64,000 nucleotides of DNA from sequence record NC_042307.1. One strand, 5' to 3'. The position numbers and the translations under genes were made by a program. Position 1 is the stretch's first letter. Each line of letters begins with the position of its first letter. Below the pieces are notes generated by a model. The model ran no database searches and was not told where the DNA came from. It worked only from the letters and a program-made list of their open reading frames with translations. Of the stretch, positions 53,845 through 59,513 are shown piece after piece. The stretch comes from a phage.

Positions 53845-54326
53845 TACCTTTTACCTCCCGTTGCTAGCGAGGTAATTAAGTCCATGTAGTTCTGATCACC
53901 GGAGCCAGCAATAATATTGTTCTGAATATTAGTCTGATTAGTAGGAGCACGAGTGGCAGCTCTTGCCTTCTCCAGCTCTACCATCATCTTCATTTCTTCC
54001 ATCTTCATTTTATGGGCTTTCCACAGAATATCCATGATATCCTGGTCAGATCCCATACCCGTTTCTTCAAGTTCTTCCAGCTTACGCTTGATAACCTCAT
54101 CAAGAACTCCAAACAACTTGTCACGGTTGCGGAACCCACTTTCCATAAAGATATCATTGAGGTAGTTCTTAACTTCCCCACGATTCATAATATCCCTGAA
54201 TGCAATTTCCGACATACCAAGACTACGGGCAGCCATGCGTACATCGCTACCGCACTGTAAATAAGCCTCGATTACATCCATGCCTTCAGGGGACATAAGA
54301 TCCGGTACTAAAACATCATTTGCCAT
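53844..54326 (-). CDS. putative terminase small subunit
   Basis: 160 aa immediately upstream of and overlapping large terminase start; HTH-like N-terminus; synteny. Confidence 0.4.
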
Positions 54327-56239
54327 TATGTTAACCTCTGAATATTAAGTCTTAGTTTGTGGTATTGAACCCACGGAGTATATGAAACAGGCAGACCGCT
54401 CATTGGCAATGCCCTAGAAGTTACCCAGAATTCTAGGATATTGGAGGCGTTCTTTCTGATATAGTATTGGAATTTGTTTCGAGGAGCACCAGCAGCACCT
54501 CCAGCATACGAGATAGTATTAGTAGTTAGAATAGGTACAAAAGTATTTGTATGTAATACTACAATTTGGTGAGAAACACCATCACCAGCGTCATAGTCAT
54601 ACTTAGTCAAACGTCTGGCAGCCCCCACATATGGACCACTACCTGCACCGCTACCAGCATTGTTACCAATACGCTGCATGTTTACGTCACCATCAGTATC
54701 ACATAGAGAGTTACCCATCCATTCAATACTTAGGAGAATCGTGGAAGGTTCTGGACTACCACCTAAACCAACATCAACTGTGTTTATTAATCTGGTTTCA
54801 CCATATGCCATAGGATACAGCCTACCATTATCTCCAAGAATAATATTGTTGGCTTTATTCTGCGTAAATAAATGTAGAGGTCTTACATTGGGACTCCAGA
54901 TATCCACACCGTTAATAGCTATCTTATTCTGTGGGGAGTTAATCTCGATATTACTATTTTGTGGAAGTCTGTACAATCCGATATTCCATGGTGTTGAGTT
55001 ACCCACTGTACTACCTGTGTTACTTCCAGTAAATCCTTTCAAACCGCCCCAGGCATTAGCACCAAAGAATCTGAAAGCACCACCATCATCCATCTCTGTA
55101 GAGGACCAAGCAAACACGTTACTAGAGAAGTAAGTATTACTAATGCTAGGAGTACCGGTACTCACAGCTGCTAACATTTCGTAGTTGGTATTTCTTAGAT
55201 CAACTCCTTTAATTATGAAGGAATCTTTTGCAATCTTAATGTCATTACCAGTAAACAGGTTTTCAGCTGAGTAACCCCAGTAGTTATCAAACGTAACGTT
55301 TAACCATAGGTACTCCATACGAACTGGGGTGAATGGGTAGTAAACCTCACTGAATCCAGACATACGCGCATTAGCCACATGACGTTCAGCACCAGCAGTT
55401 AGATAAGCGGAACTAGAGTTAGCCATTGGAATCTGATAGGGGAAATCCAGGTTACGAACCTTAGTATAAGCTGTATTACCATAGGCATTAGGATCACCCA
55501 TACCAGTAGCACATCTAGCACCACCTGCTCTAACATACACAGCATCGTAAACACTGCTAGAAGGTCCAAGTGGATGCATGTAATCAGGATTTACCAGGTT
55601 CTGACTGTCTTCATAGTTCATGATAGGACGGCTTTGAGCACGTGGTATCCAGTTAGTATACATATACCAGTCCTGTGGATCACGCCATTGGTACATAATC
55701 CAACCACCCGCTAAATCATAATAGGCATCAGCAGCGTAGTCTTCACCACCTTCATGGTCAAATATAGTATGCCCACCAGTACCATAGTTACCAATCTGAT
55801 CCCAGACAGCACCACCCTGTTTCCAGTACCCCCATTCAAGGTTCAAGTCAAACTGAATAGATCCGGTATATTGACCCCAGATACTAATATTCTCATAAAG
55901 GTTACGCCATCTATACGTACTGTTCCTCTGAATACCTGTCATCTGGTGGTAATATTCTGTACCATCAGCATTATCTCGTACCACTAGGACTGGAAGAATC
56001 ACATTTGCCCTATTTGCTAGAAGATAGCTGAGGTCGGATGGTAAGGCTCCGGTAAAGTATCCATTACCTGCGTTCCCTAAACCCACCTGAAAACGGCGTT
56101 TAACAAACATGTGAGGCATGTCTGAATGGAAGATGGAGTTTGTGTTGGGACTGTAATGAACGTTGATGTCTCCTCCACTAGCCCTATTTAAAGATAGGAC
56201 TGTTTTTCCATCTGTATATTTTCCTGCGAAGAAGCTCAT
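54326..56239 (-). CDS. putative receptor-binding tail protein (T5 pb5-like by size and position)
   Basis: 637 aa, Gly/Asn/Tyr-rich, last late gene before the early-promoter cassette; synteny only. Confidence 0.45.
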
Positions 56240-56257
56240 AAAATCTCAAAATTTCAC

Positions 56258-56290
56258 TTGTCAACAAGTCTTTATTTTTATATAATATAA
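56258..56290 (+). promoter_or_regulatory. sigma70 promoter (TTGTCA-17-TATAAT) driving plus-strand cassette
   Basis: ttgtca 56258-56263, 17-bp spacer, tataat 56281-56286. Confidence 0.6.
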
Positions 56291-56361
56291 GTATAAATTA
56301 AAAAGGCATCCAAGTAAACAAATTTTTTTATTTTCTGGATGGGTCACTGGTAGCAAACACT

Positions 56362-56688
56362 ATGCAAGAAGATGATAAGCCCTTTCAGGAACCTCTACCA
56401 CTAGAAATGAATCCTAGGGCTAAAGCAGTTCATGATGCAGTTAACGAAATCATTCAAGACGTCATAGAAGATACAATGGAAGATGTGATGGGTACATCCT
56501 TCATACTAGAAGAATCCGGCTTTGATGAAGTAATGGATATTATTGGGACAGTCGTTATGGTTCGTGCAATATGTAGAATTTTTCAAATACCAGGCTTACA
56601 GGAGAAGCAGCGTGCTAACGCAAGAAAGATTAAAAGAAGTGCTAAGGTACGACCCGAATACCGGTATATTTGTAAATTTACAAAGTAG
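56362..56688 (+). CDS. hypothetical acidic protein
   Basis: 108-aa ORF with no obvious RBS; C-terminal part overlaps HNH start in another frame. Confidence 0.35.
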   Translation: MQEDDKPFQEPLPLEMNPRAKAVHDAVNEIIQDVIEDTMEDVMGTSFILEESGFDEVMDIIGTVVMVRAICRIFQIPGLQEKQRANARKIKRSAKVRPEYRYICKFTK

Positions 56689-57146
56689 AGGAAACAAAAA
56701 AGCAGGTAGTATAGCAGGTACATCGAGATAAAGATGGCTATATAGTAATTCGTATTGACAGACTACCTTATAGAGCACATAGACTGGCCTTCTTATACAT
56801 GGAAGGATATATGCCCGTAGAAGTGGACCATGATAATAGAGTTAGAGATGATAATAGGTGGGATAATCTATTTGATGCATCTAGGCAGGAAAATATGCGT
56901 AATAGACCTTCTTGGGGTATATCTGGTTACCTAGGAGTATCCTGGAATAAATTAAAACAAAAATGGCAAGTTAGAGTACAAGATAGTAAAGGTAATCAAA
57001 TATCTGGAGGATTCTTTCCCTACCAAGATCTAAAGTTAGCGGTGGAGAAGGCTAATACGATGCGCGTACAGTTTCATGGACCACGTGCAGTTCAGGAGTT
57101 ATTTAAGGGATACAAAGTTTCTAGTGTGGAGGAGTTAAATAAATGA
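56612..57146 (+). pseudogene. HNH homing endonuclease gene interrupted by a +1 frame change near 56715-56730
   Basis: GTG 56612 (GGAGAAG RBS) encodes VLTQERLKEVLRYDPNTGIF...AGSIAGTSR-stop (56729-56731); HNH core continues in next frame from 56727 (RDKDGYIVIRIDRLPYRAHRLAFLYMEGYMPVEVDHDNR...) to 57146. Confidence 0.7.
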
Positions 57147-57262
57147 GTAAAAATAAAAGAGGGGAAGTATATGAAAGTTGGATAAATTCTTTCGGATTCG
57201 GGACTGTGTTATTCTTTATCTTTGTACTCTTTTGGTTAGCAGCTATGGCGGGGTGGTTATAA
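57143..57262 (+). CDS. small membrane protein (39 aa)
   Basis: MSKNKRGEVYESWINSFGFGTVLFFIFVLFWLAAMAGWL; ATG overlaps HNH stop; one predicted TM helix; not in ORF track (below 60 aa). Confidence 0.4.
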   Translation: MSKNKRGEVYESWINSFGFGTVLFFIFVLFWLAAMAGWL

Positions 57263-57366
57263 TGGAAGTAGTAATTATTGCTTTACTAGTTGTGGTAATT
57301 ATAGGGCAGTGCATCTTAGATAACCACTTAGCTCGTATCGAACGTAAGCTGCGGGGAGACAAGTAA
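57262..57366 (+). CDS. small membrane protein (34 aa)
   Basis: MEVVIIALLVVVIIGQCILDNHLARIERKLRGDK; internal ATG of track ORF 57178..57366; overlaps upstream stop. Confidence 0.4.
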   Translation: MEVVIIALLVVVIIGQCILDNHLARIERKLRGDK

Positions 57367-57611
57367 TGTTTAGTTTTGTAGCTATCTTCATTATCGGGGT
57401 ACTTGCGGGAATCTTCGGAACACTCGGGGCTATTAACAAACATCGTGAATATATTGCGGGGGTATCGCGAGAGCTTTCGGAAAGAGAGCGGAGGTTTGCG
57501 GAGAAACGTGCGGAGTTTGAACGAGAAGGGTCTGAGGGATCTCGGGCGTCGCGGAGGAGATTTCGTATGTCAGAATCAGGAGACAAGCCGGTAGACCGGT
57601 GTTCCTCCTAA
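57366..57611 (+). CDS. small membrane-anchored protein (81 aa)
   Basis: N-terminal TM helix MFSFVAIFIIGVLAGIFGTLGAI followed by charged Arg/Glu-rich tail; TAATG overlap with upstream ORF. Confidence 0.5.
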   Translation: MFSFVAIFIIGVLAGIFGTLGAINKHREYIAGVSRELSERERRFAEKRAEFEREGSEGSRASRRRFRMSESGDKPVDRCSS

Positions 57612-57722
57612 GTTAGCGCTAATTACCAATTCTCGAAATCTCATAAGATTACACATGCGGATGGGCCCAGTGGTTCCCCAGATGAGAATGAGTCTCATTA
57701 CCGCCCCCTTACTTAGCAAGCT

Positions 57723-57770
57723 AATAGTCACACCATGTTATCATTACACAGTGTGACTATTTTATTTTTA
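57723..57770 (+). terminator. rho-independent terminator between convergent plus-strand cassette and minus-strand dmp-like gene
   Basis: 11-bp inverted repeat aatagtcacac/gtgtgactatt with 17-nt loop, followed by ttttatttttaa. Confidence 0.55.
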
Positions 57771-57774
57771 ATTA

Positions 57775-58509
57775 TTATGCAACTTTTAGTTTCTCAATAT
57801 ATTGTTGCGGGCTGCAACTATATTCTGCGCGTTCTTCCTCGGTCATACCTTCCCAACATAATTGCAGGCGGTCGGCTAGGAACTGATAATCATTATCATC
57901 CTCAAGAGATTCATCAATAAAGGTTTCACCTATCAATGTAACCCCAATCGATAGAATATCGTTTATAGCTTGCGCGTCCAGCGTTTTAAACCCATATGAT
58001 GCCGCCGCCGCCAATACTCCTTTATGATCGTCGATCATCGTGAAATCAGCGTTCGGATATAGTTGTTTAAATAACTCAAAGTAATGGCTTTTATAAATAG
58101 CGTCCTTACTGTGGTATATTTCGCTAACCTTATCAGCCTCAAAATATTTGTGTAGTGTATCGCGGGAAAATACACGGATATTACTATCACCACGACCGCG
58201 CAACCCTTGTTTACGCAAATAATAATAGTCCGACTTGCTCATTAGTCGAGCGGTGCAAATAATGTTTAAAGTATTTGCGTCATTCATGCACTGGCGCATA
58301 TATTCAACTAATGGTAATAATGAATCCTGCATTATTAAATGATGTTTACACGCTTCATTTTTATACTTATTTAAATCTAAATTCCCGTTATCATCAAAGC
58401 AAGGCGCTACACGATGGAAAGAATTTATAATCGTTCCGTCTAAATCCCAAATCATAACGCGGGAAATATGCGGGAAAGCGCGGGTAATATTCATATTGAC
58501 TTTATTCAT
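57775..58509 (-). CDS. dmp: HAD-family 5'-deoxyribonucleotidase (T5 Dmp-like)
   Basis: 244 aa; HAD motif I VMIWDLDGTIINSF; size and location next to A1-like gene match T5 pre-early dmp by recollection. Confidence 0.6.
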   Translation of the reverse strand: MNKVNMNITRAFPHISRVMIWDLDGTIINSFHRVAPCFDDNGNLDLNKYKNEACKHHLIMQDSLLPLVEYMRQCMNDANTLNIICTARLMSKSDYYYLRKQGLRGRGDSNIRVFSRDTLHKYFEADKVSEIYHSKDAIYKSHYFELFKQLYPNADFTMIDDHKGVLAAAASYGFKTLDAQAINDILSIGVTLIGETFIDESLEDDNDYQFLADRLQLCWEGMTEEERAEYSCSPQQYIEKLKVA

Positions 58510-59003: not shown

Positions 59004-59513
59004 TTAATAAGGGATATTAAATTCTTTACACTTTGATTTAACCCATTCTAAAAGAATAGATAAATCATAATTGCCTTTTGAAACATATTTATTTGTTATA
59101 GGGTTTTTAATTTTTGCCCTGTAATATTCTCCCGCTATGGGATCAACTTTATCAAGATAAATATATTTCGGTAGTTTATTACGCCTTTTATAATCACTCT
59201 TATTTGTCATATTAACAGCATGAGTAACTAGGCGTAAATTATTTATATCGTTGTTAACGGGGTAAGAAATTATTTTATGATCTATATCTAAATCAGGGTT
59301 AATTTCTTTATTAAATAAAACCCAAATTAAACGATGAGCTTTATATAATTCACCATTAATCATTACATCATAATAGCCTGTCTGATTTAATGTTCCCGCT
59401 ACACTTCCAGCTTTCACACCGGGCTTACTTATTTTCCATCGTAAAAATGATGGGCTAGATTCATCATAATAAACATTCTCGTTAACTTCATTAAAATCTA
59501 TTTCTTTTGCCAT
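59004..59513 (-). CDS. HNH homing endonuclease
   Basis: YKAHRLIWVLF...DIDHKI...INNLRLVTHAVN HNH motif; C-terminus homologous to decayed copy at 63500..63960. Confidence 0.7.
   Translation of the reverse strand: MAKEIDFNEVNENVYYDESSPSFLRWKISKPGVKAGSVAGTLNQTGYYDVMINGELYKAHRLIWVLFNKEINPDLDIDHKIISYPVNNDINNLRLVTHAVNMTNKSDYKRRNKLPKYIYLDKVDPIAGEYYRAKIKNPITNKYVSKGNYDLSILLEWVKSKCKEFNIPY

Follow-up and report, generated by a model that had tools for sequence, protein, structure and literature searches.

In phage T5, the gene for the receptor-binding protein (RBP) adjoins llp, which encodes a receptor-blocking lipoprotein, and the distal portion of the transcription unit to which llp belongs (positions 110826-111490 of NC_005859) is made up of the small genes T5.159, T5.160, T5.161 and T5.162, each annotated 'contains single transmembrane domain'. 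The position of llp, to which the original prediction for the locus described here had appealed, is thus correctly given. The expression of Llp is described as early in the title of Decker et al. 1994 (cited in PMC10783031). No paper was found in the literature on the function of T5.159-T5.162, for which the only data are scores from the CRISPRi-ART knockdown screen of T5: all four genes were 'Not Fit' and annotated unknown (PMC11879866, supplementary files 8 and 16). Because the precision of this screen is reduced outside the pre-early region, according to its authors (PMC11879866), these scores, which come from a screen without competition or superinfection conditions, are weak evidence of dispensability. 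Comparison and literature together suggest that the four genes are accessory. Phage H8 uses FepA, and needs TonB according to the title of Rabsch et al. 2007.

A 64-kb stretch of the H8 genome (NC_042307.1; 64,000 nucleotides, hereafter the window) contains, at positions 56258-57770, a small early operon that is common to almost all T5-like phages. It consists of a promoter, an acidic open reading frame (ORF), a broken HNH gene, three small ORFs (57143-57611) and a hairpin terminator. On one side lies the gene for the receptor-binding tail protein of the pb5 family, FepA type (54326..56239, minus strand; phrog_4815, E 1.6e-186), an exact match to YP_009966103.1 of H8 that is 96.2% identical to its counterpart in S124 and 24-33% identical to the BtuB and FhuA types. 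On the other side, also on the minus strand, lies dmp (57775..58509), which encodes deoxynucleoside-5'-monophosphatase and is the first gene of the terminal repeat. The cassette stands back to back with the late genes for the RBP and terminase, and converges with dmp; the claim that it is convergent with the late genes was therefore wrong. In all but this detail of orientation, the overall observation was confirmed in the sequence. An Rfam scan of the region from 54 to 60 kb at E <= 1 gave no match, and no tRNA genes were found in the window.

The early sigma-70 promoter (56258..56300, plus strand) combines the -35 hexamer TTGTCA (56258-56263) and the -10 hexamer TATAAT (56281-56286) with a ATAAATTA box at 56293-56300. 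The plus-strand TTGTCA-17-TATAAT site (56258-56286) is present as predicted, matches the consensus at 11 of 12 positions, and is the top-scoring site across 54-60 kb. Sites of 17-nt spacing with at most one mismatch occur seven times in the window (0.87 expected), and the composite TATAAT-N6-ATAAATTA occurs eight times, always on the plus strand (0.27 expected). The other seven composite sites, with which the cassette promoter shares the signature TATAAT-N6-ATAAATT, lie upstream of plus-strand ORFs in the early replication block. Near-consensus -35 and -10 hexamers spaced by 17 nt, followed by an A/T-rich ATAAATT box, are features of the T5 early promoters that are read by host sigma-70, and the cassette promoter appears to be of the early class. 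Side-by-side comparison revealed the same arrangement of TATAAT and ATAAATTA upstream of llp in T5, STyj5-1 and DT57C, and the T5 record annotates the site upstream of llp as a promoter; its sequence marks the cassette promoter as homologous to T5 P_llp. A weak candidate for a promoter facing the RBP gene, TTTACT-17-TATACT (56290..56318, minus strand; 9 of 12 matches), overlaps the region of the plus-strand promoter, and its T5 equivalent is an annotated minus-strand promoter that scans at 11 of 12. A possible hairpin in the 5' untranslated region (CATCCAAG...CTGGATG, approximately 56308-56341) folded no better than shuffled sequences (z = 0.07) and was dropped.

The cassette ends, 5 nt short of the stop codon of dmp, in an intrinsic terminator (57723..57770, plus strand), in which an 11-bp stem (57723-57733 paired with 57751-57761) is followed by TTATTTTT. 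With a folding energy of -17.3 kcal/mol (z = -4.2), it is matched by none of 200 shuffled sequences. The hairpin is kept at the equivalent place in relatives with compensatory changes, such as the replacement of CACAC/GTGTG by CACGG/CCGTG in S124. A stable hairpin, a U-tract and a structure conserved in relatives are all found here, and the terminator that had been proposed at these positions is real. By homology to T5, it would lie approximately 60 nt inside the terminal repeat. The T5 operon also ends in a strong hairpin (z = -5.4), and the interval between llp and T5.159 is devoid of significant structure (z = +0.70), as befits a single transcription unit. In H8, a single mRNA would extend from approximately position 56293, downstream of an early promoter used by host RNA polymerase, to the conserved intrinsic terminator a short way into the terminal repeat, and would carry the message for an acidic cytoplasmic helical protein, a dead homing endonuclease gene, and three translationally coupled orthologs of T5.159, T5.160 and T5.162. 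The predicted series of an early-type promoter, a polycistronic cassette and a genuine terminator was borne out.

ORF coordinates and alignment to relatives located both the acidic ORF and the frameshifted HNH gene of the original prediction. The acidic ORF (56362..56688, plus strand; phrog_16810) is an exact match to YP_009966104.1 of H8, and belongs to a family with 237 phage records and a dN/dS ratio of 0.10-0.25. Its conserved core comprises residues 1-84 with a pI of 4.2, and the inserted HNH gene supplies its last 24 residues or so. The product, in which a signal peptide and a lipobox were looked for and neither was present, is by prediction soluble and helical: its AF2 model is all-helical (pLDDT 68), and Foldseek matches in BFVD and PDB were limited to its own family. 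The database records of H8, S124 and BB1 label this ORF 'receptor blocking protein', a label that its sequence does not support. An association of the intact acidic ORF with Llp-less phages of the FepA type, considered on the basis of the first 16 loci, was rejected because many phages of the BtuB type also have it intact.

The HNH homing endonuclease pseudogene (56612..57146, plus strand) is split over two frames (56543/56612-56731 and 56799-57146) by a +1 frameshift, due to a single extra T at 56723 in alignment with the intact 200-aa gene of Shivani and with locus L006, so that no intact frame runs through the HNH motif. It is likely to start with GTG at 56612, behind AGGAG at 56600-56604. 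Matches to phrog_99 and Pfam HNH_3 cover both halves, with the HNH_3 domain itself in the second fragment only. The two halves have 90-99% amino acid identity to the intact Shivani gp081 (phrog_99, HNH_3), from which the H8 copy differs in being inactivated by the one-base insertion. Homing endonuclease genes are typically found between two conserved genes, and so is this one: when its junctions were mapped against HNH-free S124, the insertion point fell exactly between the ribosome-binding site (RBS) and the start codon of the first small gene, tm39, and the inserted gene has regenerated both the RBS and the start codon.

The three small ORFs, all on the plus strand, have full-length matches to families of T5: tm39 (57143..57262) is the ortholog of T5.159 (phrog_8596, E = 1.2e-25; 447 phage records), tm34 (57262..57366) of T5.160 (phrog_6369, E = 1.4e-23), and tm81 (57366..57611) of T5.162 (phrog_6447, 'membrane protein', E = 1.8e-43; 394 records). 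The last is an exact match to YP_009966106.1 of H8. By tblastn, their amino acid identities to the T5 proteins are 81%, 87% and 72%, respectively, over the aligned parts. Stop and start codons overlap at each boundary, because the junctions are ATGA (HNH/tm39), TAATG (tm39/tm34) and TAATG (tm34/tm81), and both the overlaps and the Shine-Dalgarno sequences are conserved in relatives. The dN/dS ratios are 0.145 for tm39, 0.169 for tm34 and 0.325 for tm81, with an excess of third-position changes (15-16 loci), and some 400-450 T5-like genomes carry the genes. In sequence terms, the three ORFs are real genes that are under selection and, as had been proposed, translationally coupled. They are also genes already known, part of the ordinary T5-like backbone: they are annotated in T5, have PHROGs families, and come from a phage, H8, that has already been published.

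In H8, as in its relatives, these genes lie between the RBP (or RBP and llp) genes and the terminal repeat, and the gene order is matched in T5, DT57C, SP15, Shivani, STyj5-1 and Gostya9, and also in a tblastn map of 16 loci. T5.161 is absent from H8, L003, L005, L006 and L011, and T5.160 is absent from S124. T5 and H8 are alike in gene order, overlapping stops and starts, single transmembrane (TM) helices, location between the RBP gene and the right terminal repeat, the early promoter, which is homologous, and a hairpin terminator at an equivalent place. However, H8 lacks llp and T5.161, has an extra acidic ORF (of the Epseptimavirus-type backbone) and the dead HNH gene before its T5.159 ortholog, and ends its tm81 in 14 residues of the 'MSESGDKPVDR' type, where T5 has a type of its own. 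The data did not support paralogy among T5.160, T5.161 and T5.162. In the one genome of the Klebsiella T5-like phage vB_Kpn9-P3, proteins of 74 aa and 151 aa with an N-terminal TM helix and a coiled coil are encoded at the same position, but they have no significant sequence similarity to the small proteins and are an analogy only. A search for homologues of tm81 returned 36 proteins, all at least 66% identical and named 'hypothetical' or 'membrane protein', almost all of them from T5-like phages, metagenomes or unnamed contigs. Searches of the cassette proteins against NCBIfam and PADLOC gave nothing meaningful, and no remote homologue of the small proteins was found in Pfam, NCBIfam, PADLOC or by profile search.

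Each small protein has one hydrophobic window, with Kyte-Doolittle maxima over 19 residues of 2.33 (tm39), 2.83 (tm34) and 2.48 (tm81), in agreement with the single TM helix foreseen for each; none has a lipobox, as had also been stated. In topology prediction, the flanking charges fit the positive-inside rule, with just 0-2 residues (plus helix ends) on the periplasmic side. The predicted arrangements are a basic N-terminus in the cytoplasm and a C-terminal TM helix for tm39, which would be tail-anchored; an N-terminal TM helix and a basic C-tail, N-out/C-in, for tm34; and an N-terminal TM helix followed by a long charged helix, also N-out/C-in, for tm81. All three may accordingly be viewed as putative single-pass inner-membrane proteins, for which contact with an outer-membrane receptor is unlikely because so little of them is predicted to be exposed to the periplasm. 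Invariant positions account for 9 of 21 TM residues in tm39, 8 of 17 in tm34 and 11 of 22 in tm81, among them G11, G15 and G18 of tm81. Since the TM helices are no less conserved than the soluble parts and contain invariant small residues, it is probable that they pack among themselves or onto a membrane protein of the host. AF2 models tm81 as one extended helix, with good confidence in the TM part only and low confidence beyond, and this model adds little information. In H8, tm81 has Gly in place of a Trp that is conserved in at least 90% of the family (W55G), and this copy may therefore be impaired.

Members of the tm81 family have weak matches to the Pfam families LapA_dom (21 of 21), ZapG-like (6 of 21) and UPF0154 (12 of 21), small bitopic proteins of bacteria (ZapG-like including YhcB) that share with tm81 the architecture of a TM helix and a charged helix. 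The scores are under the gathering thresholds (14 bits for H8 tm81 against a curated cut-off of 28), and a tm81 profile search of 1.84 billion representative proteins returned five matches, all from its own family. Homology to LapA_dom or ZapG-like proteins, which the profile search did not reciprocate, was rejected; the resemblance is likely to be compositional, given that only family members were returned, and is taken as an analogy of shape for all three families.

From the operon neighbourhood (Llp), the timing and the topology, the cassette can be tentatively assigned a putative function as an accessory, receptor-independent, early inner-membrane module. As a best guess, it would contribute to an early conversion of the envelope, acting within the inner membrane plane or at the cytoplasmic surface of that membrane, and its likeliest role would be to shield the infected cell from the entry of competing phage DNA or from membrane-acting functions of the host or of competitors. 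T4 Imm and Sp, P22 SieA and HK97 gp15 are likewise small, early or constitutive, membrane-embedded, and dispensable in single infections. However, they have no homology to the H8 and T5 proteins detectable with Pfam, NCBIfam, PADLOC or exhaustive profile search, and the small proteins differ from them in having almost no predicted periplasmic portion.

Among the alternatives, a role in host takeover or anti-defence is rather unlikely, although several observations point that way. The proteins would inhibit a host inner-membrane machine, such as TonB-ExbBD, a division or envelope-biogenesis factor or a transporter, or would neutralise membrane-embedded abortive infection effectors. The genes are early and accessory, the PHROGs category of T5.162 is 'moron, auxiliary metabolic gene and host takeover', and the sequence-specific conservation of the TM helices, with their invariant glycines, is the pattern anticipated for helices that bind a partner through helix-helix contacts. 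The receptors known for T5-like phages are all TonB-dependent transporters, and TonB is needed by H8 as well. Against these points, no partner is known, PADLOC and NCBIfam gave no matches, and the LapA_dom and ZapG-like matches that could be cited in favour of a host machine are below the cut-off and likely to be compositional. This alternative overlaps with the shielding role, from which it differs mainly in its target.

Receptor masking at the outer membrane and lysis, by comparison, are disfavoured as functions of the small proteins; of the roles that location had suggested (superinfection exclusion, receptor masking or lysis timing), these two were weakened. That the proteins are holin-like or antiholin-like regulators of the timing of inner-membrane permeabilisation is improbable. 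The general look of tm81, small with one TM helix and a highly charged C-terminal cytoplasmic tail, is that of a holin, and tiny hydrophobic peptides such as tm34 can perturb membranes. However, the holin (T5.041), endolysin (T5.040) and Rz-like spanins (T5.044/045) of T5 are encoded approximately 90 kb away, no muralytic gene adjoins the cassette, no holin family was matched in Pfam, PHROGs or NCBIfam, and the promoter is of early rather than late type as far as its sequence indicates.

It is very unlikely that H8, in which Llp is missing, relies on the small membrane proteins or on the acidic protein to block FepA and so keep infected cells and debris from binding phage. The cassette does occupy the position of T5 llp, divergent from the RBP gene and behind the same early promoter, and the acidic ORF bears its database label. 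Furthermore, tblastn of the window with llp of the T5, Epseptimavirus and DT57C/BF23 types found no homologue below E = 0.1, a simple scan found no lipobox-bearing ORF of 40-200 aa, and llp is also absent from Gostya9 and from all FepA-type relatives. As the search covered 64 kb of the H8 genome, an unrelated blocker could be encoded elsewhere. In T5, DT57C, SP15, STyj5-1 and saus132, a genuine llp/cor lipoprotein gene precedes the small genes, which are therefore no substitute for it; they coexist with llp in phages of the FhuA and BtuB types. Comparison of the locus across receptor types, which the original prediction had called for, showed that the cassette assorts independently of RBP type. 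The H8 small proteins are 95-100% identical to those of a BtuB-type phage with an RBP identity of 27%, whereas their identity to the Shivani counterparts is just 67-92%, with an RBP identity of 99.5%. In contrast, the type of Llp co-varies with that of the RBP, as expected of co-inheritance with its cognate. The small genes thus appear to belong to the conserved genome backbone and not to the swappable RBP/llp module. [quoted passage not shown] The minimal periplasmic exposure of the small proteins argues against masking, as do the predicted soluble helical nature of the acidic protein, which has neither export signal, and the presence of its ORF in many BtuB-type phages that also carry llp.

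It is scarcely credible that the small ORFs lack a function, whether as products of chance or as relics in decay: their shortness (34-81 aa), the lack of individual members in some genomes, the absence of a measurable cost in T5 knockdowns and W55G in H8 tm81 could be so read, but purifying dN/dS ratios of 0.15-0.33 with third-position excess, presence in hundreds of genomes, conserved junctions and Shine-Dalgarno sequences, and the regeneration of the tm39 RBS and start codon by an inserted homing endonuclease all speak against it.

These results link four near-universal membrane protein genes of T5-like phages to the early operon of Llp, and show their independence of the receptor. Llp-less phages of the H8 type offer a clean natural background for the question of exclusion, or alteration of the envelope, that does not depend on Llp. 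A bolder and improbable extension of the preferred reading, as an accessory inner-membrane module, is that T5.159-T5.162 constitute a receptor-independent 'second layer' of lytic conversion, common to all T5-like phages, which closes the cell from the inner-membrane side. Such a layer would disable the energy-transduction complex TonB-ExbBD, on which colicins and TonB-dependent phages rely, or would bar DNA from crossing the inner membrane. If this is true, it would be the only exclusion function in phages that lack Llp and depend on TonB, such as H8.

Escherichia phage H8 is T5-like and has been described as depending on FepA and TonB (Rabsch et al. 2007, cited in PMC8594841). Its receptor-binding tail protein (RBP; 54326-56239, minus strand; exact match to YP_009966103.1 of H8) shares 99.5% identity with the RBP of Salmonella phage Shivani and 96.2% with the RBP of S124; against RBPs of the BtuB and FhuA types, identity falls to 24-33%. 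The adjoining plus-strand cassette (56258-57770) is, in identity and operon structure, very probably the H8 copy of the T5.159-T5.162-type operon, with five reading frames between promoter and terminator: an acidic ORF, an HNH gene in two frames, and three small ORFs. The original prediction described it accurately overall, except that it called the cassette convergent with the late genes; it lies back to back with the RBP and terminase genes and is convergent with dmp, the first gene of the terminal repeat.

The three small plus-strand ORFs, tm39 (57143-57262; phrog_8596), tm34 (57262-57366; phrog_6369) and tm81 (57366-57611; phrog_6447; 81 aa, exact match to YP_009966106.1 of H8), have full-length PHROG matches, and tblastn mapping across 16 loci identifies them as orthologs of T5.159, T5.160 and T5.162, respectively. 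As predicted from the sequence, their stops and starts overlap (ATGA, TAATG and TAATG) and each contains one strongly hydrophobic stretch. The gene order in T5 is oad (T5.157), llp (T5.158, encoding the receptor-blocking lipoprotein), the overlapping genes T5.159-T5.162 (42, 35, 64 and 81 aa, each annotated as 'contains single transmembrane domain'), and then the right terminal repeat. An ortholog of T5.161 is missing from H8 and from four of the relatives' loci compared (L003, L005, L006 and L011), and S124 lacks T5.160 while keeping a divergent T5.161 (L008, 2387-2611). Phage SP01 has an additional T5.160-like ORF in its cluster (L010, 3555-3707). A Klebsiella T5-like phage, at an equivalent position in a locus without a lipoprotein, has unrelated proteins of 74 aa and 151 aa with an N-terminal transmembrane helix and a coiled coil (L016, 3191-3873). 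The exact tm39 sequence is recorded only from a JGI/IMG contig, and so seems to be unannotated in the NCBI record of H8.

With 447 and 394 phage records, respectively, the T5.159 and T5.162 families cover practically every T5-like phage of Escherichia and Salmonella. Judging from codon alignments, the three ORFs are real genes under purifying selection (pooled dN/dS of 0.145 for tm39, 0.169 for tm34 and 0.325 for tm81), with variable sites mostly at third codon positions. The transmembrane helices of all three proteins are conserved to the same degree as the soluble parts and that of tm81 has invariant glycines, which suggests that the helices may make specific helix-helix contacts. Searches of Pfam, NCBIfam and PADLOC returned nothing above threshold. 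A resemblance to LapA_dom, weak in 21 of 21 members, was not reciprocated and was rejected; an exhaustive profile search recovered only the proteins' own family.

The near-consensus promoter that had been proposed is present on the plus strand at 56258-56286 (TTGTCA-17-TATAAT, agreeing with the consensus at 11 of 12 positions), and no site within 54-60 kb scores better. Loose promoter-like matches are not in excess in this AT-rich DNA (17, compared with 18.8 expected from shuffles); near-perfect matches are enriched (7 in the window, 0.87 expected). Directly 3' of the -10 element is ATAAATTA, and the composite TATAAT-N6-ATAAATTA, allowing at most one mismatch, has eight occurrences in the window (0.27 expected), none of them on the minus strand. 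Each of the other seven sites lies just 5' of an ORF on the plus strand, within the block of replication genes at 1-29 kb. Because of this enrichment and placement, the cassette promoter would belong to the phage's own early-promoter class, and the seven further copies of TATAAT-N6-ATAAATT (2176, 5917, 9910, 12153, 13328, 22905 and 23006) constitute a ready-made map of H8 early promoters. The upstream regions of llp in T5, STyj5-1 and DT57C have the same layout of -35 element, 17 nt, TATAAT and ATAAATTA, and the T5 sequence is annotated as a promoter in its record; this common architecture makes the cassette promoter the P_llp homologue. Llp itself has been described as expressed early (Decker et al. 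1994, as cited in PMC10783031).

The transcript would end, as proposed, at a clear terminator, an 11-bp stem (57723-57733 and 57751-57761, plus strand) followed by TTATTTTT, with a folding energy of -17.3 kcal/mol (z = -4.2) that no shuffled sequence equalled. Relatives have two sequence versions of it at the identical position, related by compensatory changes (CACAC/GTGTG in H8 versus CACGG/CCGTG in S124). In T5, the spacer between llp and T5.159 has no significant structure (z = +0.70) and the end of the operon has a strong hairpin (z = -5.4), which fits a single transcription unit from llp through T5.162. Alignment with the annotated repeat start of T5 puts the junction of unique and repeat sequence at approximately 57664, which would place the terminator within the terminal repeat, some 60 nt from its edge. 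Just outside the annotated start of the T5 right terminal repeat sits the conserved block GCGCTAAT...TCTCGAAAT(T/C)TCATAAGATTACACATG (approximately 57616-57664 in the window; L004, 6486-6532). It is common to H8, T5, DT57C, STyj5-1, S124 and Gostya9, between flanks that differ, and includes the GCGC that forms the core of the nick consensus in T5; it is a candidate genome-end recognition site for terminase or nickase.

Both HNH fragments have HNH-family matches and align with an intact 200-aa gene of Shivani; the frameshift reported originally is due to one extra T at 56723, outside any homopolymer run. Compared with the HNH-free S124, the element has precisely separated the start codon of the T5.159 ortholog from its ribosome-binding site, AGGAGAA. 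The resident AGGAGAA now serves the HNH GTG at 56612 (56600-56614), and the 3' end of the element provides a new GGAGGAG and ATG for tm39 (57125-57165), which is why tm39 has 39 aa rather than 42-45 aa. Codon 55 of tm81 (57528-57530) encodes Gly in H8, at a position that is Trp in at least 90% of the family (EREWSDGS to EREGSEGS); this substitution and the HNH frameshift could be real decay or errors in an older genome sequence. Another HNH homing endonuclease ORF (169 aa; 59004-59513, minus strand), apparently intact, is located in the pre-early region between a dmp-proximal ORF and A1, as is Shivani gp073.

The acidic protein (108 aa; 56362-56688, plus strand; exact match to YP_009966104.1 of H8) has a conserved core (residues 1-84, pI 4.2), and its last 24 or so residues are encoded by the HNH insert. 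The core is under purifying selection where the ORF is intact (dN/dS of 0.10-0.25); in a substantial minority of records the ORF is frameshifted or truncated. The family has members in 237 phage records, the majority from Epseptimavirus; many BtuB-type phages that also carry llp are among them. The protein is predicted to be soluble, and its AlphaFold2 model is helical (pLDDT 68), with no structural neighbours beyond its own family. The records of H8, S124 and BB1 name it 'receptor blocking protein'. Its sequence lacks both a signal peptide and a lipobox, and it is found alongside genuine Llp genes; the label appears to be positional only and unsupported. A 41-kb record, PQ773600.1 ('Corynebacterium phage CPphiVTCCBPA_418'), carries this FepA-type RBP at 95.6% identity, together with the acidic ORF; it is probably T5-like sequence that was mislabelled or is a contaminant.

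Location beside the RBP gene, where T5 has its receptor-blocking lipoprotein gene, had made the small proteins candidates for receptor masking. FhuA- and BtuB-type relatives carry llp/cor there; H8 and all of its FepA-type relatives (Shivani, S124, GSW6 and UTK0009), as well as Gostya9 (RBP 53% identical), lack an llp-like gene here (window 56240-56361; L001, L008, L018, L019 and L020), and no llp homologue or lipobox ORF is present anywhere in the 64-kb window. Masking by the small proteins is nevertheless unlikely, for their genes occur together with true llp in FhuA- and BtuB-type phages, and whereas each llp type travels with its RBP type, the small genes vary independently of it. When the locus is compared among relatives with other receptors, tm39, tm34 and tm81 are nearer to those of the BtuB-type phage L006 (100%, 100% and 95% identical; RBP 27% identical) than to those of RBP-matched Shivani (only 92%, 80% and 67%). 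Moreover, the positive-inside rule predicts tm39 to be N-in and tm34 and tm81 to be C-in, with only 0-2 residues on the periplasmic side. Lysis timing had also been suggested originally; evidence against a core role in lysis comes from the early class of the promoter and from the location of the T5 holin, endolysin and spanin genes at T5.040-T5.045.

In the supplement of a CRISPRi-ART screen (PMC11879866), whose authors caution about precision in T5, T5.159-T5.162 are annotated as unknown and all scored 'Not Fit', which is evidence for accessory status. That the small proteins provide exclusion or protection at the inner membrane is the preferred but tentative guess, drawn only from neighbourhood, timing and topology. 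The cassette is real, already known, and ordinary for the T5-like phage group; the best-supported reading is that it encodes an inner-membrane module that is conserved, early, accessory and independent of the receptor, and that T5 co-transcribes with Llp.
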